DNA of 64,000 nucleotides from Patescibacteria group bacterium. Lineage in GTDB: Bacteria > Patescibacteriota > Patescibacteriia > SG8-24. The notes below the pieces were generated by a model that saw only the letters and a program-made list of their open reading frames with translations, did no database searches and was not told the origin of the DNA. Positions 34,408 through 44,613 of this stretch are shown in pieces; position 1 is the stretch's first letter; the number at the start of each line of letters is the position of its first letter. A program made the position numbers and the translations under genes. Where the stretch lies: positions 4,296 to 68,295 of the forward strand of contig JBAYFM010000007.1 of NCBI GenBank assembly GCA_041667185.1. The letters are read 5' to 3'.

Positions 34408-34509
34408 CTCCGCCACGTCGCTCGCAAACGAAGTGACGGAGTCAGGGAGATACGGAGACGGAGTTTGGGAGAGTGCAGGAGTGGAGGAGTCGGGGAGACC
34501 CGACGCAAA
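34408..34509. repeat. Composite repeat copy (degenerate core CCACGTCGCTCGCAAACGAAGTGACGG; GACGGAG, GAGTGCAGGAGTGGAGGAG, GGGGAGACCCGAC blocks)
   Basis: Shares blocks with the 1863-2045 copy. Confidence 0.7.
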
Positions 34510-34589
34510 CTCCCGCACTTCAGCACTCCCGCACTTCAGCACTCCCGCACTTCAGCACTCCCGCACTTCAGCACTCCCGCACTTCCGCC
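34510..34589. repeat. Minisatellite: 16-bp unit CTCCCGCACTTCAGCA x5
   Basis: Five perfect tandem units read directly, about 60 bp upstream of the 16S P1 promoter. Confidence 0.9.
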
Positions 34590-34948: not shown

Positions 34949-36456
<1,508 letters not shown>

Positions 36457-36617
36457 TAGGGAGACACTTCGTCGAGGAGAGCATATGCCTCCTTGACGAC
36501 AGAACATCGCGTTGTACAAACGCGGTGCTCCTAGGTCGTTCGCTTGGCAAGTTTACTTGCTGGGCGCCAATCTCAGACGTTAGATTCCTCTGCTATCTCG
36601 TTCAGATCGCCAAAGCG

Positions 36618-36646
36618 AAAAAGTCCCGTCATGCGGGGCTTTTTTC
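36618..36646 (+). terminator. Intrinsic terminator about 170 nt after the 16S 3' end
   Basis: GTCCCG-TCAT-GCGGGGC + T6. Confidence 0.55.
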
Positions 36647-36760
36647 GTTCCCGCAACCTGTCCTCCGTAGCCCGTAGGCGAAGGAGGAAAGCGGTGATCC
36701 ATGATCGTACACCCGACCGCGAGGCGGGATTTCAGCACAACGACAGCGGCTCGGCGACAA

Positions 36761-36784
36761 TAAAAAACCTCCGCAGGCGCGGAG
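36761..36784 (-). terminator. Terminator for the minus-strand hypothetical gene
   Basis: Minus-strand CCTCCGCGCCTGCGGAGG + T6. Confidence 0.6.
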
Positions 36785-36792
36785 GCTCAAGA

Positions 36793-37221
36793 CTACTTGT
36801 AGTTCACGGTGATGAGGCGGGAGTCGGACAAACGATCCTTGAGCCGCACGGTGCAGCCAGAATCCCGAAGCCAATAGGCCACGGCCTGGACAATCGCATC
36901 CGACGGACATCGGCCAAGAACGGACAGGTACAACCTGGCGTCGCGGCGGCCGTAGCGGGTGGCGCTCACGCACAGGGCATAAAGCGCGTCGTACCAGAGC
37001 AGGATCGCCTGATCGAGGCGGCTGATCTTTTTGCGTCTGATGCTGGTCTTCCTGATCTCGAGTCTGAAGCCTGGCATCCGAGACGCCATCTGATCGCGGT
37101 TCAACTCGGCGAGCAGGCCCAGCAGAACGGTCAGGGATTTCTTCTCCGCCTGCTCAAACAACATATCCATCAATTCGAGATCTTCTATCCTAAAAGTCTC
37201 GACAGGTCTTTTGTCGGCCAT
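36793..37221 (-). CDS. Hypothetical protein (142 aa)
   Basis: Start MADKRPVETF with AAGGAGG RBS; no recognisable domain. Confidence 0.5.
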   Translation of the reverse strand: MADKRPVETFRIEDLELMDMLFEQAEKKSLTVLLGLLAELNRDQMASRMPGFRLEIRKTSIRRKKISRLDQAILLWYDALYALCVSATRYGRRDARLYLSVLGRCPSDAIVQAVAYWLRDSGCTVRLKDRLSDSRLITVNYK

Positions 37222-37331
37222 CTGAACCTCCTTATTTCCAAAGATCTGCCGCCATCTCAACACGGACCAGGCCGACAGTCAAGCGCGCTGACCGATAAAA
37301 AAGCCGTCCCTGACAAGAGACGGCGGCGGTT

Positions 37332-37583
37332 TCAGCGTCCGATGGCGACGCCGATGCGATAATGGCTGCGTTCGATGTTCTCTTCATACCGGGCGTTGAA
37401 ACCTTCCTGCCGCAGACGGGCAGCCGCCGCGGCATAAGCCTTCTTGGTGAGCGACAGGTCGCCGGCATCGGAACGGACGATGACCTCGTGACAGATCCGG
37501 CCGTGCCAGCTCCGCCACCCCGAACCGCCAGGAAAACTTTTCAAGAGGTTATCGACCCGGCGCTGAAGTTCAGACCTGGGCAT
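37332..37583 (-). CDS. Hypothetical small protein (84 aa; start MPRSELQRRV)
   Basis: ATG overlaps the upstream gene end by 14 nt; GC-rich region so spurious ORF possible. Confidence 0.25.
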   Translation of the reverse strand: MPRSELQRRVDNLLKSFPGGSGWRSWHGRICHEVIVRSDAGDLSLTKKAYAAAAARLRQEGFNARYEENIERSHYRIGVAIGR

Positions 37584-38304
37584 GGCCGCACCCCTTATTG
37601 ATCGCGGCCCGGGGATACCGAGCGGCGAGAAAGATGCGGCCGGCTTCGAACGAGGGTGTCGACAGACCCGACAGGCGCTCGAGTCCGATCTCGAAACCAC
37701 TGCCGTCAGCGAGCCTTTGGATGACCGGACAAGCGATCTGATCGGCCGCGGCGTCGGCGGCACTCGCGGCGCTGATCGTGGCGAGCGTGCCCGTGGCCAT
37801 CAACCGATCCGGCAAGTCGTCCGCGTGCTCGGCGGCGAAAGCGACGAGCTGCGTCAGACTCGCGGGAACGAGTTCTTTGGCTAGCAGCATCTTCTCCACG
37901 TCGTGAAAACTCGTCTCCAGGTCGAAACGCAGCAACTTGAGACGCACGACCGATCCGGATTCCGAACCGGCCGCCATCGTCCATGATCCGCTGGCCAAAA
38001 GCTCGGCGGAACACCTGAGTTCCGGGGTAAGCAGCGATTCGAGGGCCAGGCCATCGATAGCTCTTACGGAATACTGCCGCAGACGCTCGCACACCCGGCT
38101 CCAGTCGGCCATCGCGGATGTTTCGTTTGGCGGCTGGATCGGCACGAACTCCTTCAGACACTGTTCCAGCCGGCCATCCATGACCGCGCGGATCAGGTGA
38201 AAATTGTCATGCAGCCGTCGGATCTGCTCGACGTTCGCGATGCCCAGCATCTGGCTAAAACGCTGCGAAACCCTCTCGATCAGGGCCCAATCGACGTTGG
38301 TCAT
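37570..38304 (-). CDS. Hypothetical protein (244 aa)
   Basis: GAGGAG RBS 7 nt upstream of ATG; no recognisable domain. Confidence 0.55.
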   Translation of the reverse strand: MTNVDWALIERVSQRFSQMLGIANVEQIRRLHDNFHLIRAVMDGRLEQCLKEFVPIQPPNETSAMADWSRVCERLRQYSVRAIDGLALESLLTPELRCSAELLASGSWTMAAGSESGSVVRLKLLRFDLETSFHDVEKMLLAKELVPASLTQLVAFAAEHADDLPDRLMATGTLATISAASAADAAADQIACPVIQRLADGSGFEIGLERLSGLSTPSFEAGRIFLAARYPRAAINKGCGHAQV

Positions 38305-38603
38305 GGGTAAAACTCCTCGCTTTCGTGACGTCAGCTATAAAAGAACGCCCGCTCAAACTAGCAGTATTCAGCCTAAAAGTCAAGGTGGCGGACGGCTGAA
38401 ATAAGGTCGACCCCGCCTTGCCAAACTCCGGACTTCTTGCTATATTTTTCCCGCATCGTTAAGATGTTTTTGCGTTATTTTGGGCGTATAGCTTCCCCTT
38501 TCGCCCCTCGGGAGGCTGCGGAGGTAGGCAGTTGATCAGAGCGCCGCACTGACCCAGTACAGAATCGGCAGTTCATTATAATCTCTCTGGTGGGCGTTCT
38601 CAT

Positions 38604-38680
38604 GGGCGTATAGCTCAGTTGGTTAGAGCGTCACACTGATAATGTGAAGGTCGATGGTTCGAATCCATCTACGCCCACCA
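38604..38680 (+). tRNA. tRNA-Ile (anticodon GAT), CCA encoded
   Basis: GGGCGTATAGCTCAGTTGGTTAGAGCG...CTGATAA anticodon loop...GGTTCGAATCC T-arm...TACGCCCACCA. Confidence 0.9.
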
Positions 38681-38798
38681 GAGAGATTAAAATGTTTGCC
38701 GATTATTGCGAGGCAAGCGCGGAAACCGCAGGTTGGCAAGCCGCCTGTTCAAAGGCTTACGCGACCATAATTTCTCGAGAGCGTGTCGGTCCAAAATT

Positions 38799-39332: not shown

Positions 39333-39362
39333 GACAGCGGAAGTAAATCGGTTTTCCGTGAC

Positions 39363-39437
39363 GCCGAGGTAGCTCAGTGGTAGAGCAGAGGACTGAAAAT
39401 CCTCGTGTCGCCAGTTCAATCCTGGCCCTCGGCACCA
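39363..39437 (+). tRNA. tRNA-Phe (anticodon GAA), CCA encoded
   Basis: GCCGAGGTAGCTCAGTGGTAGAGC...CTGAAAA loop...GTTCAATCC...CCTCGGCACCA. Confidence 0.9.
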
Positions 39438-39470
39438 CGGAAAGCCGATTTTTTGATAAGATGACGTCAT

Positions 39471-39546
39471 CGGGGCGTGGCCTAATGGCTAAGGCACTTG
39501 CTTTGGGAGCAAGGGATTGAGAGTTCGAGTCTCTCCGCCCCGACCA
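39471..39546 (+). tRNA. tRNA-Pro (anticodon TGG), CCA encoded
   Basis: CGGGGCG acceptor, anticodon stem CTTGC/GCAAG with loop TTTGGGA, T-arm GTTCGAGTC, 3' CGCCCCGACCA. Confidence 0.85.
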
Positions 39547-39573
39547 AATTTCATATGAATATCGGTTTCATCT

Positions 39574-39649
<76 letters not shown>

Positions 39650-39657
39650 CTGAAAAC

Positions 39658-39681
39658 GCTCCGCCACAGGCGGAGCTTTTT
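39658..39681 (+). terminator. Intrinsic terminator after tRNA-Gly
   Basis: GCTCCGCC-ACAG-GCGGAGC + T5. Confidence 0.65.
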
Positions 39682-39692
39682 CAATACCAAAC

Positions 39693-39911
39693 GGGTGATG
39701 GGAATCGAAGGGTATCCGAGGACGTGCCTAGTATGGCACGTCCGAGGAACCGGGGTGCGGCGCAAGCTGGCGTCGCGCCGCACGGGCGGGACGCACCCGC
39801 CCAGGGTTTCGCGAGTGATTCCGATTAAATACGAGCGAAACCGAAGGAGGCGGCGCACATGAGAACTTTTCCAGCGCCGCCGGGTGAGCCGGATTCCCAT
39901 CACCCGCTCCA
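39693..39911 (+). other. tRNA-Gly-derived structured element 1
   Basis: 5' GGGTGATGGGAATCGAA is the inverted tRNA-Gly T-arm/acceptor; 3' GATTCCCATCACCCGCTCCA is a direct copy of the tRNA 3' end; interior forms perfect hairpins (CCGAGGACGTGCC/GGCACGTCCGAGG, GTGCGGCGC/GCGCCGCAC, GGGCGG/CCGCCC, GGTTTCGC/GCGAAACC). Confidence 0.5.
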
Positions 39912-39917
39912 CAAAAA

Positions 39918-39943
39918 ATCCTCACCCGGTGTGAGGATTTTTT
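39918..39943 (+). terminator. Terminator-like hairpin after element 1 (ATCCTCAC-CCGGT-GTGAGGAT + T6, preceded by A6)
   Basis: Near-identical hairpin recurs at 40216-40241. Confidence 0.6.
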
Positions 39944-40198
39944 GTAGCTCAATGGTAAGCCCGCTTGATACACCAAGGAAAAGTTATGCGTGCTTGCGGC
40001 GAGAAGTGGCGGCCTTAGCCGCGCATCCGTAATGGTCCGGCTGCGCCGGACCGACGTCGTAGAGCTCCAGGTTTCCAACCTGGCCACGTGGGGTACGCCG
40101 CGAGCCGGCGCAGCGACGCACGGGCGGCAAGGGCCGCCCAGGGTCAACCGAATCATTTCCGATCCTAGACGAGGTCGACGATTCCCATCACCCGCTCA
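39943..40198 (+). pseudogene. Degenerate tRNA-Gly(TCC) copy with two ~90-100 nt insertions
   Basis: Contains TGTAGCTCAATGGTA (D-arm), then a 100-nt insert, then GTAGAGCTCCAGGTTTCCAACCTGGCCACGTGGGG (intact anticodon arm), then an 86-nt insert sharing CGCACGGGCGG...GCCCAGGGT...TTCCGAT blocks with element 1, then GATTCCCATCACCCGCTCA. The 5' acceptor strand is missing. Confidence 0.5.
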
Positions 40199-40215
40199 GT
40201 AAATAGAAATGAAAG

Positions 40216-40241
40216 ATCCTCACCTAGCATGAGGATTTTTT
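40216..40241 (+). terminator. Terminator-like hairpin after element 2 (ATCCTCA-CCTAGCA-TGAGGAT + T6)
   Basis: Paralogous to 39918-39943. Confidence 0.6.
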
Positions 40242-40251
40242 GTATAAGAAT

Positions 40252-40282
40252 TATAAAAGCGGCCCCTCCATGGAGGGGCCGC
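40252..40282 (-). terminator. Terminator for the AAA+ ATPase gene
   Basis: Minus-strand GCGGCCCCTCCATGGAGGGGCCGC + TTTTAT. Confidence 0.55.
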
Positions 40283-40307
40283 GTTGCGGTCTGATAAAGA
40301 TCCGGAC

Positions 40308-41564
40308 TCACTTGCTGCCAGGAGACAGCAGAACGGGACGGTGCTTGCGGTACAATCCGGGCTTGTTGAACTCATCCACGCGAAACATGAGTTCGTCACC
40401 GGGTTCGACTTCTCCGCCTTCGATGGCGTTGGCGAGCGGCAGCGCGACATGCTTGTTCACGATCTGCTGCAGTTCGCGCAAGCCGTACTCGCGGCTCACG
40501 CCTTCGTCGAGCAGGAACTCCTTGTAGCCGTCGCTGAAGCGGAGCTGCACCGGAACATTATTCGCCGCGACGCCGGTGAGCTTATCCTGCTCCTTCTTGA
40601 GCATGAGTTCGAGCACCCTGGCACTCTGTTCTCGATCGAGCGACCGGAAGACGATGATGTTGGTCCGGATGCGGCCGACGAACTCCGCGGGGAAGAACTT
40701 GTAGATGAGCTTCGACGTCTCCGTGTAGATGGCGGCATCGATCTCATCGGCATTGTCCTTTTCCGATCTCGTCGGCGGACGCAGACCGATCGTCTTGTCG
40801 TTTCCCGACAAGAGCTCGTTCGAACGCTGGCCGCCGATGTTGCAGGTCAGCATGATGACCGAACTCGAGAAGTCGGTGATGTCGCCGTTCGCTAGCGAAA
40901 GGCGACCGCCGTCGATGATGCGCAAAAGCGCGTTGTGCACCGTCCGGTGGGCTTTCTCGATCTCGTCGAACAATACCACGGACAAGTAGGGCTTGTTCCG
41001 CTGGTAGAATTCCGCGAGGAGACGCTCCATCTTCTTCGCATCCAAGTCCGGATCGACGCCATTCAGATTGGCGCGCACATGCTCGCGCCACTTCATCCAG
41101 AAATGAAAATCATCGATCTTCATCTGAGCCAGCTTGGGCGTGCCGTCGAAACCGACGTAACCCGGAGGCGAACCGATGAGTTCGGCGAGCTGATGATGCT
41201 CGGTGAACGTGGTGCAGTCGATGAACGTGAGCGGCGCATCCGCCTGATCGGCGATGAGCGCACGAGCCAATTCCTGGGCCATGAGCGTCTTGCCGACGCC
41301 GGTGGGACCAGCGAAGATGACCGCGTTGATCGGCTTCACCTGATCCTTGAGGCCGGCATGATAGATGGCAAAACTGCGGGCCAGACGTTCAGCCGCGCGA
41401 TCCTGGCCGATGACTCGGCTCGTCAGGAAGTCGTAGATCCGCTTCGTCTTGGGACCGAAAGCGTCCGACGAGACGTGCTCGGTGAACAGGCTTTCATCAT
41501 GAGCGAGCAGAGGTTTGGTGGACATGATCTGCCTCCCTAGCTGACGGTTGCGAAATCCGGACAC
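40308..41564 (-). CDS. Single-module AAA+ ATPase of the Clp/Hsp100 family (ClpA/ClpB D2-domain-like)
   Basis: VIGQDRAAERLARSFAIYHAGL, Walker A GPTGVGKT, Walker B VVLFDEIEKAH, sensor/arginine-finger region, C-terminal D2-small domain; no N-domain or second AAA module. Confidence 0.75.
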   Translation of the reverse strand: MSGFRNRQLGRQIMSTKPLLAHDESLFTEHVSSDAFGPKTKRIYDFLTSRVIGQDRAAERLARSFAIYHAGLKDQVKPINAVIFAGPTGVGKTLMAQELARALIADQADAPLTFIDCTTFTEHHQLAELIGSPPGYVGFDGTPKLAQMKIDDFHFWMKWREHVRANLNGVDPDLDAKKMERLLAEFYQRNKPYLSVVLFDEIEKAHRTVHNALLRIIDGGRLSLANGDITDFSSSVIMLTCNIGGQRSNELLSGNDKTIGLRPPTRSEKDNADEIDAAIYTETSKLIYKFFPAEFVGRIRTNIIVFRSLDREQSARVLELMLKKEQDKLTGVAANNVPVQLRFSDGYKEFLLDEGVSREYGLRELQQIVNKHVALPLANAIEGGEVEPGDELMFRVDEFNKPGLYRKHRPVLLSPGSK

Positions 41565-41761: not shown

Positions 41762-43009
41762 TCACCCGACTGGCTGGATCAACGGTATCTTTCTATTGCC
41801 CGCGAATACCAGCGCACCATCTCTCTTCATGGCTATCAGATTCTGCCAGGCCAGCCAGGCAATCACCGCCAGCAGAAGACCACTCGCGAACTTGTAGGTC
41901 CAGGCGAAAGGATCCAGACCGAACAGGATCGGAAATTGCAGATAGGCTGTCAGGCCCAACAAGACCAGCGCGACCGTTTCCCGCTTATCAGAGACTAGGA
42001 CAGCGAGCGGTATGAACCACACGACCCACTGCGGCGAAACAAAACGGTTGAAAAGCATGAACGGCAGCAGCAGGAACAGACAGGCGCGGATGAAAGCCTT
42101 CGCGTCAGCGATCCGACCGAAGACCAGCAGAAAAATGAAAGGAATGAACTGCAACAAGGAGAATATTCCGGCCAGGATGACCGCGAACCAAACGGAACCG
42201 CCGCCGAGGAAACTGGCCGCCCACAAGCTGATGTCGCCGAGCGAACCGATCTCAAAAGTCCGTCCCAGGTGGAACAGGATCGGCGACAGGAAAGCGTCCG
42301 GACCAGCCCAGATCAGGATGCCGCCGAGGAGGACGACCGGCGCCGCCGCTGCCGCCACCAGGACGCGGCGGCGGCCAGGCTCCGAACTGGACCCGGCCGC
42401 GCTCTGCGCCGCCAGCATGAGCAGCGGCAAAAGAAAGAAAGCTGGATAAAATTTGACCAGACCGCCCAGGATCAGCCAGAGAGCCGCTAGGACGCGACGA
42501 CCCCTGATCACTTCATGCGCCGCCGCGGCGACGAGCACCGCCGGCAGGATATCGAAACGCCAGACTGAAAAATAGATGACCCCGGGGAGAAAAAACAACC
42601 ACAAGTATTTAAGCGGCCGTCCGAGCGAAATGAGGATCTTCCCCGTGAGCCAGACCAGCAAGCCGAACAGAATACTCGTCAACAGAGCGAAAATATCCTG
42701 ATAGATGAAAGGGTTGGAAGTGAACAGCCGCGGCAAGGCCAGGAATAAGACGCCGGCCGGCGGATATTCCTGCGGCGACGCCGCGCTGTACGGACGGCCG
42801 CCGTCAGCCAGCCATTGGCCGCGTTCGAAATAAACTCGCATCTCCTGCTCGTCCCGCAAGAGCCGCAGACCGGAATCAAAAAATTCGCCATCGGAAAAAA
42901 GCGCCGGCGGAAGCAGTAGTCCGACCAGGGAAAAAACGAGGGCGAACAAAAAAGCCGCCGCGCCCCAATAACGAAGCTGAGCGGCGAGCGCGGCGCGATC
43001 ATTCATCAT
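41762..43009 (-). CDS. Polytopic integral membrane protein (GT-C/DUF2029-like), start overlapping the ruvC stop
   Basis: About 11 predicted TM segments; ATG of MMNDRAA overlaps the ruvC TGA (ATGA); listed longer N-terminal extension is Arg-rich non-coding. Confidence 0.6.
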   Translation of the reverse strand: MMNDRAALAAQLRYWGAAAFLFALVFSLVGLLLPPALFSDGEFFDSGLRLLRDEQEMRVYFERGQWLADGGRPYSAASPQEYPPAGVLFLALPRLFTSNPFIYQDIFALLTSILFGLLVWLTGKILISLGRPLKYLWLFFLPGVIYFSVWRFDILPAVLVAAAAHEVIRGRRVLAALWLILGGLVKFYPAFFLLPLLMLAAQSAAGSSSEPGRRRVLVAAAAAPVVLLGGILIWAGPDAFLSPILFHLGRTFEIGSLGDISLWAASFLGGGSVWFAVILAGIFSLLQFIPFIFLLVFGRIADAKAFIRACLFLLLPFMLFNRFVSPQWVVWFIPLAVLVSDKRETVALVLLGLTAYLQFPILFGLDPFAWTYKFASGLLLAVIAWLAWQNLIAMKRDGALVFAGNRKIPLIQPVG

Positions 43010-44440: not shown

Positions 44441-44573
44441 AGTCTACCACTTGCCCTAAATTCGCTCAATATAGCCCCGATACAAGCCCGACAAAATGCT
44501 CTTTTTAAAGCAGCATCCGAAGACGGAGCCGCTTGGTAGCTCGGACTGGCTAAGAAGTTGGGAAGTGCAGGAG

Positions 44574-44613
44574 CACTCCAGCACTCCAGCACTCCAGCAC
44601 TCCAGCACTCCGA
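44574..44613. repeat. Microsatellite: 8-bp unit CACTCCAG x5
   Basis: Perfect tandem octamers read directly. Confidence 0.85.

Follow-up and report, generated by a model that had tools for sequence, protein, structure and literature searches.

Small non-coding insertion elements that depend on their own folded structure and specialise on tRNA genes, left as debris beside a tRNA-Gly gene, are the best explanation, with about an even chance of being right, for one region of the 64-kb stretch of DNA analysed here (the window). The host is known from a metagenome-assembled genome of the Patescibacteria (CPR) and is an uncultivated, ultra-small bacterium. tRNA genes are classic landing sites for mobile DNA. 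To our knowledge, the invaders described so far are either large protein-coding elements or self-splicing introns. The invaders in this region are 85-260-nt non-coding units with RNA-like covarying folds, placed in the conserved arms of many tRNAs, and one type, the element E1 directly behind the tRNA-Gly gene, seems to carry its own replacement tRNA end. The element families appear to match no RNA family or mobile element found described.

The tRNA-Gly locus

The tRNA-Gly gene and the terminator hairpins of the region are the following:
39576-39649, plus strand: intact tRNA-Gly(TCC) gene (ARAGORN; Rfam tRNA, 71.5 bits; direct repeats)
39651-39683, plus strand: terminator hairpin with T run, term1 (inverted repeat; hairpin at 39658-39676)
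39911-39945, plus strand: hairpin T, the ancestral tRNA-Gly terminator, orthologous by eye to the hairpin directly 3' of tRNA-Gly in the related loci L004 and L007
40212-40244, plus strand: hairpin T', the ancestral terminator repeated, with 85% identity to T (39914-39946)

Positions 57-76 of the tRNA-Gly (39630-39649) are directly repeated at the ends of both E1 and the second element, E2. The 18-mer GATTCCCATCACCCGCTC occurs four times in the window, three times direct and once inverted, against 0.11 expected. The repeats, hairpins and coordinates listed in the initial annotation were all recovered, including a trailing hairpin that follows both elements (T and T'). The terminators are swapped between genomes: hairpin T stands behind the intact tRNA in L004 and L007, but behind 3' fragments in the window and in L003. 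By-eye comparison with L004, L007 and L003 indicates that term1 is not orthologous to the tRNA-Gly terminator of these relatives, and in L004 a decayed relative of term1 lies behind the 3' fragment. Term1 is read as probably brought in together with E1. As initially annotated, the ATPase encoded downstream has a single AAA+ module of the Clp/Hsp100 type (PF07724 + ClpB_D2-small), and no genes were called between its gene and MgtC.

Among the 37 window ORFs scanned with Pfam there is no transposase, integrase, reverse transcriptase or HUH gene, and mobility genes were also not found among the called genes of the related loci examined. A retron (msr/msd) was considered as well, and the window ORFs scanned lack its reverse transcriptase. 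With Rfam at gathering thresholds, the whole window yielded genuine tRNAs and 16S rRNA only; in E-value mode, no family matching the elements was found in the region and five related loci. Weak matches to YrlA, miRNA and HgcF families are due to chance or tRNA-derived, the best YrlA (RF02553) match reaching 30.9 bits against a threshold of 69 and covering the genuine tRNA-Pro/tRNA-Gly, not E1 or E2. Neither element was called as a tRNA or tmRNA cloverleaf by covariance model or ARAGORN, which detected 39576-39649 only. An antisense 142-aa ORF across E1 and E2 (39728-40156, minus strand) was discarded, being without Pfam match and uncalled by gene finders.

An exact look-up of the MgtC protein, made for strain variants of the locus, returned no record, and viral contigs scanned with the core of the D-loop insertion INS-D and two E1-specific patterns gave nothing relevant. 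Scanning genomes and metagenomes for the patterns gave mostly chance matches, in GC-rich genomes, and the real ones come from Patescibacteria contigs only. The literature describes group I introns in Patescibacteria tRNAs; nothing was found there describing these inserts.

The element directly behind tRNA-Gly

E1 consists of two arms around a hairpin-rich interior:
39692-39709, plus strand: arm B, CGGGTGATGGGAATCGAA, the tRNA-Gly T-loop with the 3' strands of T-stem and acceptor, in inverted copy (inverted repeats)
39711-39752, plus strand: hairpin H1, with a symmetric CGAG/CGAG internal loop (tandem G.A pair) and compensatory changes in L066 and L064
39752-39835, plus strand: block H2-H4, homologous to the T-loop insert of E2
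39849-39881, plus strand: hairpin H5 (GGCGGCGC...GCGCCGCC), nearly identical, together with the 3' end, in L066
39892-39911, plus strand: arm A', GATTCCCATCACCCGCTCCA, direct copy of tRNA-Gly positions 57-76 (direct repeat)

The predicted fold of E1 reaches -133.2 kcal/mol (z = -9.35), and none of 200 shuffles was as good. E1 homologues lie behind tRNA-Gly in two distant relatives, L066 and L064, whose AAA+ neighbours share 48-54% identity with that of the window, and over the three sequences 13 of the 49 pairs are compensated. The window and L066 hardly differ in the H5 region, whereas H1 diverged. Block H2-H4 is missing in both homologues, and it is therefore read as a likely secondary insertion or copy. 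The H5 loop contains GGAGG/ATG, which is not conserved in L064. The corresponding small ORF (39859-40032; GGAGG, 10 nt, ATG at 39859) is present in L066 and was rejected as non-coding, because it is lost in L064 and its frame runs through the terminator.

Arm B is complementary to the tRNA at 39627-39644 (18/18) and to the 3' end of E1 at 39892-39906 (15/15); the latter, or alternatively the former, is its pairing partner. The arm tracks the local T-arm, with ATGGG in the window, AACGG in L003 and CTGGG at the tRNA-Lys of L012. In L064 it measures only ~10 nt, and the idea of a hairpin that mimics the target is thus not uniformly supported. Architectural analogues of E1 occur at tRNA-Gly and tRNA-Lys; the E1-like elements in L003, L004 and L012 have interiors of unrelated sequence. 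In all five E1-like elements the sense strand is the more stable one. The E1 site is empty in L007, L068 and L072; an empty tRNA-Gly site in relatives was one of the checks proposed with the initial annotation, and L007 provides it.

As in tRNA-integrating elements, the insert is bounded by direct repeats (39630-39649 and 39892-39911), the upstream copy of which completes the tRNA. The terminator swap relative to L004 and L007 is consistent with integration into tRNA-Gly, and arm A' is read as what is probably the original tRNA 3' end, displaced. Gene calls, and Pfam on the long ORF, revealed no integrase gene or remnant inside E1. As a whole, the layout of E1 looks like a T-loop integration that delivered a new terminator together with a 3' end replacing that of the tRNA.

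The duplicated pseudo-tRNA-Gly

E2 is composed of three tRNA-Gly segments and two inserts:
39943-39957, plus strand: tRNA-Gly positions 6-21 (TGTAGCTCAATGGTA), 15/15 direct repeat
39958-40061, plus strand: INS-D, 104 nt, ending in CGTA (covariance model, 62.2 bits, E about 1e-11)
40062-40092, plus strand: tRNA-Gly positions 22-53, from the 3' strand of the D-stem through the anticodon arm and variable loop to the 5' strand of the T-stem, matching the intact gene
40093-40178, plus strand: T-loop insert, 86 nt, copy of E1 block H2-H4 (sequence comparison)
40179-40197, plus strand: tRNA-Gly positions 56-74, 19/19 direct repeat, with the CCA end lost (CTCAG)

E1 and E2 had been annotated initially as tandem members of one highly structured family. 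This does not hold: E2 is a dead, non-functional tandem duplicate of tRNA-Gly with two separate insertions, and E1 is distinct from it. The strong structure is that of E1, the fold of E2 being weak overall (z = -2.2), and the two elements have in common only an 84-nt block, which the homologues of E1 lack. Inserts of about 101-104 nt and 86 nt separate the tRNA segments of E2, and the middle repeat spans 40059-40092 when followed to its exact limits (34/34). The TGTA at the start of E2 overlaps the end of trailer T, and both trailers finish in TTTTTTGTA; this overlap marks the microhomology junction of the tandem duplication.

The similarity between the second insert of E2 and E1 that had been pointed out initially was confirmed: the T-loop insert matches the E1 interior at 73-82% over ~85 nt and shares with it a co-varying stem (GGGCGGG/CCCGCCC versus GGGCGGC/GCCGCCC). 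The H2 stem is broken in the E2 copy and has no compensation, and the insert is therefore decaying.

A family of D-loop insertions

INS-D consists of a hairpin P1, a closing helix P2, an invariant GCGGC-CTTA-GCCGC hairpin and a hairpin P3. The window contains a single copy, and covariance-model or pattern scans gave a family of 13 copies (85-119 nt) in at least six genomes. Their hosts are fragments of Gly, Pro, Lys (three copies in tandem), Ala, Arg, Thr, Phe and Ile tRNA genes. The expectation, formulated with the initial annotation, of conserved structured families with copies elsewhere is thus borne out by covarying copies in other genomes, beside other tRNAs. All 13 insert-bearing host copies are truncated and stand beside an intact copy.

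Every insertion is precise relative to the neighbouring intact tRNA. The target, at the base of a tRNA-arm hairpin, is TA|R (after TA, before a purine), and the sites include the D-loop (21|22), the junction 9|10 and an antisense T-stem. Every copy has (G/A/C)TA as its left flank and a purine as the following base, and most have TA or GTA on both sides. The right-hand GTA in L050 and L004 differs from the native ATA or CTA, and it therefore belongs to INS-D. The target is not demonstrably duplicated; the 3' end of the insert itself (CCGTA) mimics the target, and copies can stack in tandem. An empty site is provided by L072, whose partial tRNA-Pro copy reads AACGGCTA|AGGCAC, against AATGGCTA[INS]AGGCAC in the same partial copy of L004. 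INS-D has no terminal inverted repeats, as a comparison of its ends (AGCCGCGG... and ...GCCGTA) shows. At GGGCGTA|GGTGG a copy stands antisense to tRNA-Ile, and the target is therefore a DNA motif and not the tRNA transcript. Owing to this copy, insertion at the RNA level into folded tRNA loops was set aside.

The pairing of INS-D is maintained in 95.5% of cells, with 10 of the 21 pairs changed on both sides, in an alignment that was itself fitted to the covariance model; none of 500 shuffles reached this value and slid controls gave 25-51%. MAFFT misaligned P1 and P3 on full copies and was replaced by P1-loop-trimmed and model-fitted alignments. The sense strand holds 42 G.U pairs and the antisense strand 8, and the sense strand is the more stable one in 9 of 12 copies. 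P1 and P3 are dissimilar, and P3 varies freely.

Related patterns at other tRNA genes

Two further features of the window lie at tRNA-Ile:
38472-38552, plus strand: partial tRNA-Ile copy with insert (direct repeat, 86%)
38574-38597, plus strand: inverted tRNA-Ile acceptor 3' strand, CCA and trailer, in the leader (24 nt, 96% complementary to 38671-38694)

The partial copy consists of a 10-nt leader with positions 1-12, a 35-nt GC-rich insert at 12|13 (38494-38528) and degenerate positions 13-38. The inverted piece is analogous to arm B of E1. At tRNA-Pro, the insert INS-A is ~95% identical between genomes whose AAA+ proteins share 45% identity, and INS-A with a partial tRNA-Pro copy stays with tRNA-Pro through an inversion. 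The ~95% identity of INS-A and the near-identical H5 could reflect selection for a host function, not selfish spread. Other tRNAs of the lineage have long leader/trailer stems that covary. The relatives also differ in the genes between tRNA-Gly and AAA+, with MptA_B behind tRNA-Gly, and in those between tRNAs (DUF333, a 123-aa ORF, GIY-YIG).

Proposed mechanism and rival explanations

E1 would be a T-loop mini-integrant, the left end of which gives a replacement tRNA 3' end and a terminator, so that the tRNA gene would stay intact. The right end would be the displaced original 3' end with the ancestral terminator. Arm B would allow the single strand of E1 to form a hairpin, the stem of which would imitate the tRNA target in its double-stranded form, on the model of folded single-stranded sites (CTXphi attP, integron attC) or of IS200/IS605-type ends. 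The enzyme, a hypothetical recombinase or one of HUH type, would be supplied in trans from elsewhere. The empty site left after excision is predicted to join tRNA-Gly ...CACCCGCTCCA directly to CAAAAAATCCTCAC. INS-D would restore nothing upon insertion and would therefore survive only in redundant tRNA fragments. The initial annotation had considered a tRNA-targeting MITE with terminal inverted repeats. A tRNA-targeting insertion element does fit best, but the presumed repeats of E1 are copies of the local tRNA and INS-D has none. Against mobility, a mobility enzyme was found neither in the 37 window ORFs nor among the called genes of the related loci examined, and no circular or excised form was seen. 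Copy number may be low, with one INS-D per 64 kb and few genomes matched.

E1, and perhaps the insert-bearing leaders, could instead be host-functional non-coding RNAs co-transcribed with the tRNA and freed by RNase P and RNase Z. This release is proposed because the terminal stem of E1 copies the acceptor/T-stem of tRNA-Gly and ends in CUCCA; the product would resemble the 'top half' of a tRNA with an enlarged loop and might serve, for instance, as a decoy, as a scaffold for proteins or in regulating tRNA maturation. The sense-strand-specific structure with its many G.U pairs and tandem G.A loops agrees with such RNAs, as do the occurrence of E1 at the same locus in distant relatives with compensatory changes, the retention of H5 in L066 despite the divergence of H1, the conservation of INS-A with its partial tRNA-Pro and the covarying leader/trailer stems of other tRNAs. 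A host role is nevertheless unlikely, as E1 begins 9 nt past the T run of a strong bidirectional terminator, where no promoter-like site was found, and its lack in L007, L068 and L072 makes it dispensable. Furthermore, the acceptor-like stem cannot form in the L064 copy, L003, L004 and L012 carry E1-like elements whose interiors have no common sequence, and the occurrence of INS-D in tandem, in eight tRNA contexts and once antisense is the behaviour of an insertion and not of a gene.

The decay of larger integrase-bearing prophages or ICEs, serially integrated at the tRNA-Gly 3' end and later deleted, would leave att remnants whose structure is incidental to GC-rich DNA. Direct repeats from the T-loop to the CCA end are typical of T-loop-targeting tyrosine integrases, and they are found here with the intact tRNA upstream and the fragments downstream. 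The terminator swap also agrees with integration, and the variable gene content at the tRNA cluster of the relatives marks an insertion hot spot. This alternative, already named in the initial annotation, is right in part for E1, where the new terminator is at the intact tRNA and the ancestral one behind the displaced 3' fragment; as an account of the whole region it is improbable, to much the same degree as a host role. Random remnants would not retain folds of z = -9, compensatory changes and strand-specific G.U/G.A pairing, and decay is not expected to end in one minimal architecture shared by five genomes and two tRNA types. An inverted arm that tracks the local T-arm is foreign to double-stranded attL/attR, 3'-end integration does not explain 5' partial copies with INS-D, and the window ORFs scanned contain no integrase remnant. 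The D-loop, the anticodon loop and the T-loop, where the inserts sit, are positions known for archaeal non-canonical introns. Patescibacteria are moreover rich in tRNA group I introns (PMC13011429), and the inserts might be introns, group I or archaeal-type at non-canonical positions, spliced from functional precursors. This is very improbable, given that all insert-bearing copies are truncated (5' acceptor strand or entire 3' half gone) beside an intact insert-free copy, and that one is antisense to its tRNA. The inserts measure just 85-119 nt, compared with about 200 nt or more for group I introns; Rfam gave no group I or other ribozyme match at E <= 10 in the region (39500-40350) or at E <= 1 in the related loci (L012, L021, L050, L062, L032), and the INS-D junctions are P1/P2-flanked multi-helix junctions and not bulge-helix-bulge motifs. 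Least credible of all is an assembly artefact, in which strain variants were threaded serially into tandem tRNA fragments: contigs L002, L005 and L006 do break within or beside the repeated tRNA segments, but the whole region is identical in the separately recorded ENA assembly L001, the Logan contig L002 is identical across the 3' half of E2 and the adjoining AAA+ gene, and the same architectures, diverged with compensatory changes, occur in other species and samples (L003/L032, L004/L054, L066, L064, L072, STA_55).

Debris of tRNA-specialised insertion elements thus being the preferred reading, a broader class can be tentatively outlined. Possibly, though with some doubt, these are undescribed non-coding mobile elements whose single-stranded fold (RNA or ssDNA) would both recognise and invade the arms and loops of tRNA genes and which, with the long leader/trailer stems and the trailer modules held in common, would give tRNA loci in Patescibacteria an architecture specific to the lineage. 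The E1 type and the INS-A type at tRNA-Pro would carry the tRNA segment that keeps the gene working, and tRNA processing or regulation may have recruited some of the modules. If true, this would be a new kind of minimal mobile element, with target recognition via a structure that mimics the target, and would account for the fragments that litter the tRNA loci of the clade and are ignored by annotation tools. The INS-D, E1 and INS-A motifs would then be usable for covariance-model searches in the extremely streamlined CPR genomes. If the elements are host RNAs instead, they would be new tRNA-linked regulatory or processing RNAs.

Comparison with known systems

INS-D resembles the PATEs of IS200/IS605 and the REP/RAYT elements in several respects. 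It has neither terminal inverted repeats nor a demonstrable target duplication, lies 3' of a short fixed sequence that its own end resembles, folds in a strand-specific manner with subterminal hairpins near both ends, is non-coding and would depend on a putative enzyme in trans. The INS-D junction GTA|G is reminiscent of the GTAG that forms the base of REP hairpins in E. coli. Unlike in PATEs and REP, the left and right hairpins of INS-D are unrelated, the internal GCGGC-CTTA-GCCGC is invariant while P3, varying freely, is unlike a protein-binding site, the targets are restricted to tRNA arms and the 37 window ORFs scanned include no Y1 transposase. With the TA-target MITEs (Correia, IS630/mariner-derived), INS-D shares its small size, non-coding nature, multiple copies and insertion at TA. 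It differs from them by the lack of terminal inverted repeats, the inverted arms of E1 being genome-specific copies of the local tRNA, and by a TA that is not demonstrably duplicated (in L050, ATA on the left and GTA on the right). DDE-type MITEs need no internal covariation, in contrast to INS-D, the internal stems of which covary.

The group I introns of Patescibacteria tRNAs lie in the anticodon loop (e.g. 35/36), match Rfam group I models, are self-splicing and interrupt the sole functional copy (PMC13011429). The inserts described here are likewise structured, RNA-like sequences that interrupt tRNA genes of the same phylum, but they are 85-119 nt long, are without Rfam match and interrupt truncated copies, at D-loops, at T-loops or at the 8-9 junction.

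E1 is similar to the integrative elements of tRNA 3' ends and to CIMEs in being bounded by direct repeats from the T-loop to the CCA end, with the tRNA regenerated by element-borne sequence and the original 3' end and terminator moved downstream. In contrast to these elements, the whole of E1 measures ~260 bp, is non-coding and integrase-less, and has an inverted copy of the att segment and a conserved covarying fold. The inverted arms around a loop could fold into a target-like stem, as in CTXphi attP(+) (XerCD) and integron attC, where structure is also kept while sequence varies and folding is strand-specific; upon integration one arm comes to be inverted just inside the element, as it is in E1. 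The target of E1 is the tRNA T-arm, unlike dif or attI, and the context is neither phage nor integron. The likeness of E1 to CTXphi attP and attC is a topological one, with which the arm geometry and the strand bias are compatible.

Locus and neighbourhood

The window derives from the chromosome of a Patescibacteria (CPR) bacterium. Directly downstream of E1 and E2, the two tandem elements that follow tRNA-Gly, a gene encodes an AAA+ protein 100% identical to an NCBI protein named 'Patescibacteria group bacterium', and housekeeping genes (rpoB, rpoC, yebC, ruvC, recA, ftsK, trmD and smc) lie around. The features of the region are:

34950-36455, +, 16S rRNA
38604, +, tRNA-Ile, then an MgtC gene, tRNA-Phe, tRNA-Pro and tRNA-Gly(TCC)
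39576-39649, +, tRNA-Gly(TCC), intact
39692-39911, E1
39943-40198, E2

Gene callers called nothing from the AAA+ gene to MgtC. The whole region is identical in a separately recorded ENA assembly (L001), and a Logan contig (L002) is identical across the 3' half of E2. An assembly artefact is excluded by independent assemblies and diverged orthologues. Within the window no 23S gene is detected, hence none after the 16S gene, and the ~2.1 kb before tRNA-Ile contain ORFs without Pfam matches (36544-37362, +; 37570-38304, -); the rRNA operon therefore appears unlinked. Perfect short tandem repeats occur ~365 nt before the start of the 16S gene (ACTCCCGCACTTCAGC x4.8, 34509-34585) and directly after the rpoC stop in the yebC-rpoC spacer (AGCACTCC x5, 44572-44611). 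The AT skew is extreme (+0.48) at 42001-43000, where a gene for a 481-aa GT87-like membrane protein lies on the minus strand.

Structure of E1 and E2

Every feature that the initial annotation listed for the two elements is present in the sequence. The first 18 nt of E1 (arm B) repeat the tRNA T-loop, T-stem and acceptor 3' strand perfectly in inverted orientation, and its end is a direct 20-nt copy of the tRNA 3' end. E2 consists of tRNA-Gly positions 6-21, 22-53 and 56-74, with zero mismatches, separated by inserts of ~104 nt (INS-D, 39958-40061) and 86 nt. The second insert matches E1 39752-39835 (hairpins H2-H4) at 73-82% identity, and the terminator-like hairpins after E1 and E2 are 85% identical to each other. 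The description of both elements as highly structured holds for E1 (-133 kcal/mol, z = -9.35) and is marginal for E2 as a whole (z = -2.2); in the E2 copy of the H2 stem the helix is broken and compensation is absent.

E2 has neither the 5' acceptor strand nor the CCA end and thus cannot be a tRNA. TTTTTTGTA is the end of both trailing hairpins and TGTAGCTC (tRNA positions 6-13) the start of E2, so that the junction of tRNA trailer and tRNA body is a 4-nt microhomology, TGTA, the signature of a tandem duplication via illegitimate recombination.

Homologues of E1 are placed directly after the tRNA-Gly terminators of two distant relatives, L066 and L064, whose AAA+ proteins are 48% and 54% identical to that of the window. 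The common layout is, in order:

inverted T-arm
hairpin H1, with a symmetric CGAG/CGAG loop
GAAGGAGGC
hairpin H5
GGG(T/G)GAG..GGATTCCCAT...CCA

Among these three sequences 13 of 49 pairs are compensated. The H2-H4 block (82-84 nt) occurs in the window only, and the piece common to E1 and E2 is therefore secondary, either an insertion or a copy. Elements of L003 (tRNA-Gly) and L012 (tRNA-Lys) have the same architecture with unrelated interiors, and L004 carries a ~440-nt GC-rich stretch ending in a tRNA-Gly 3' fragment, with no evident inverted arm. Where present, arm B corresponds to the T-arm of its own locus (window ATGGG, L003 AACGG, L012 CTGGG), and the sense strand folds better in 5/5 E1-like elements. 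By eye, the hairpin after E1 and E2 resembles the terminator directly 3' of tRNA-Gly in L004 and L007, and an unrelated terminator follows the intact tRNA-Gly of the window; the same swap is found in L003.

A GCGAG/CGAG pentamer recurs on both helix strands of all GC-rich inserts, giving symmetric tandem G.A internal loops (examples are window 39717-39745 and 39810-39827, L012 6225-6330 and L062 250-400). It is likely a structural or protein-binding signature common to otherwise unrelated inserts.

The INS-D family and its insertion sites

Inserts homologous to INS-D interrupt the D-loop of a partial tRNA-Pro copy in L003 and L004 (BLAST E = 3e-11 and 8e-9), which share the gene order of the window and have AAA+ proteins 71-78% identical to its own. 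A conserved-core scan of genome and metagenome collections, followed by a covariance model, gave 13 copies, a lower bound as the collections were scanned by exact pattern, one per large collection.

Host tRNAs of INS-D
tRNA-Gly: window
tRNA-Pro: L003, L004
tRNA-Lys, three in tandem: L012 (Patescibacteria MAG STA_55)
tRNA-Ala: L021 (Patescibacteria MAG STA_55)
tRNA-Arg: L050
tRNA-Thr: L062
tRNA-Phe: L066, plus two copies of a diverged variant between positions 9 and 10
tRNA-Ile: L004, antisense to the tRNA

All hosts are truncated tRNA copies, each adjoining an intact copy of the same tRNA that has no insert; compared with this intact copy the insertion is exact. An empty site is present in L072, with the same partial tRNA-Pro copy and no insert. 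The left flank is (G/A/C)TA in all copies, the next base is a purine and the site is the foot of an arm hairpin. INS-D itself ends in CCGTA, which accounts for the way three non-identical copies are stacked head to tail in L012. The tRNA-Ile copy, inserted between GGGCGTA and GGTGG, is antisense, and hence the target is recognised on DNA and not on the tRNA transcript.

The fold comprises:

P1, hairpin AGCCNC...GNGGCT, loop of 4-37 nt
P2, helix closing the 3' domain
invariant hairpin GCGGC-CTTA-GCCGC
P3, hairpin of freely variable sequence

In an alignment fitted to the model, which biases these figures upward, 95.5% of cells are paired and both sides have changed in 10 of 21 pairs; none of 500 shuffles does as well, and slid controls yield 25-51%. 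Several alignments are built from 3-13 sequences, some of which are related to each other. The minimum-free-energy folds of single copies agree with the model, G.U pairs number 42 on the sense and 8 on the antisense strand, and the sense strand is the more stable one in 9/12 copies.

In L066 (10246-10900, -) three serial partial 5' copies precede tRNA-Phe, two with the diverged variant between positions 9 and 10 and one with INS-D between 21 and 22, each with the native leader repeated after it. Downstream of tRNA-Arg in L050 (1678-1726), a D-arm fragment (GTTCAACGGATA) is followed by a 37-nt miniature (AGCCCGC...GGCGATA) that looks like an internal-deletion derivative of INS-D.

Insertions and extensions at other tRNA genes

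The same pattern is seen at tRNA-Ile of the window (38472-38694), where a partial 5' copy upstream of the gene (leader and positions 1-12) has a GC-rich insert of 35 nt between positions 12 and 13. A partial tRNA-Phe copy in L072 also has an insert at this position. In the tRNA-Ile leader, 24 nt repeat the tRNA 3' end, CCA and trailer in inverted orientation (96% complementary). tRNA-Phe caps a leader/trailer stem of 25 nt (39345-39369 / 39427-39451) that prolongs the acceptor stem beyond CCA and finishes with a T run. Judged by eye, the stem seems to covary among L003, L004 and L007 (GTTTTCCGTG/CACGGAAAGC versus GCCTTCCATG/CATGGAAGGC), and a comparable extension of 16-19 bp is found at the inner tRNA-Pro of L003 and L004. 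To our knowledge, long extensions of this kind are unusual among bacterial tRNA precursors.

Nested tRNA-Pro genes (L003 9530-9860, -; L004 8880-9225, -; L072 4400-4640, +) consist of a partial copy (positions 1-37), a ~105-nt structured insert (INS-A) and the intact gene, and in L003 and L004 positions 39-76 are then repeated once more. In the tRNA cluster of L066 (9827-10090, -), an 87-aa ORF with a GIY-YIG nuclease domain, located between the trailer of tRNA-Phe and tRNA-Pro, could encode a candidate homing-type nuclease or be incidental. A conserved trailer module of ~110 nt (after CCA, CGTAAAAA-hairpin-TTTTTACGTG, CCCCGTG-hairpin-TTTACGGGG, ...GCTGGGTTTCACGTGGCGC) follows tRNA-Lys, tRNA-Ala, tRNA-Phe and one E1 element in two different genomes:

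L012 6086-6200 and 6349-6460
L021 6500-6620, -
L066 10130-10245 and 9310-9430, -

Proposed mechanism and alternatives

The simplest account of E1 is an insertion into the T-loop of a unit of ~262 bp, which comprises tRNA positions 57-76, a terminator, arm B and the structured cargo. Such an insertion would regenerate the tRNA and displace the old 3' end with its terminator. Because a double-stranded att site needs no inverted, target-tracking arm, we infer that arm A (tRNA positions 57-76) and arm B may pair on a single strand and so mimic the duplex of the target, in the manner of CTXphi attP or integron attC. INS-D insertion restores nothing. Survivorship best accounts for the confinement of INS-D to redundant fragments, since L072 shows that the partial copy predates the insertion. 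The partial copies derive from duplications (the TGTA junction of the window and the leader duplications of L012, L062 and L066) and also from events of the E1 and INS-A types.

A role of E1 as a host ncRNA is possible. In its favour, H5 is strongly conserved, and INS-A at tRNA-Pro is ~95% identical between L004 and L072, whose adjoining AAA+ proteins are 45% identical; against it, a terminator lies upstream of E1, three relatives (L007, L068 and L072) have no E1 and the arm of L064 is short. Plain att remnants, the alternative raised in the initial annotation, account for the direct repeats and the terminator swap but leave the covarying, strand-specific folds and the 5' fragments unexplained. 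Introns are excluded for the copies seen, given their truncated hosts, the lack of a ribozyme match and the one antisense copy.

Relation to known systems

The elements are best read as small non-autonomous insertion elements, a known kind, with a real chance that they form a new class. No Rfam family matches the inserts, no transposase or other mobilising enzyme was found in the window ORFs scanned, and no excised form was seen. The only related reports found in the literature are of group I introns in Patescibacteria tRNA anticodon loops (PMC13011429), which are set apart from the present inserts by their size, position and catalytic core and by the integrity of the host gene. The behaviour of INS-D comes nearest to that of IS200/IS605-type miniature elements or REPs, with which it shares the lack of TIR, an apparent lack of TSD, the fixed 5' flank and single-strand hairpins, but it is without their paired end hairpins. 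E1 is closest to integrase-less att-flanked remnants and differs from them in being ~260 bp long, structured and hairpin-armed.
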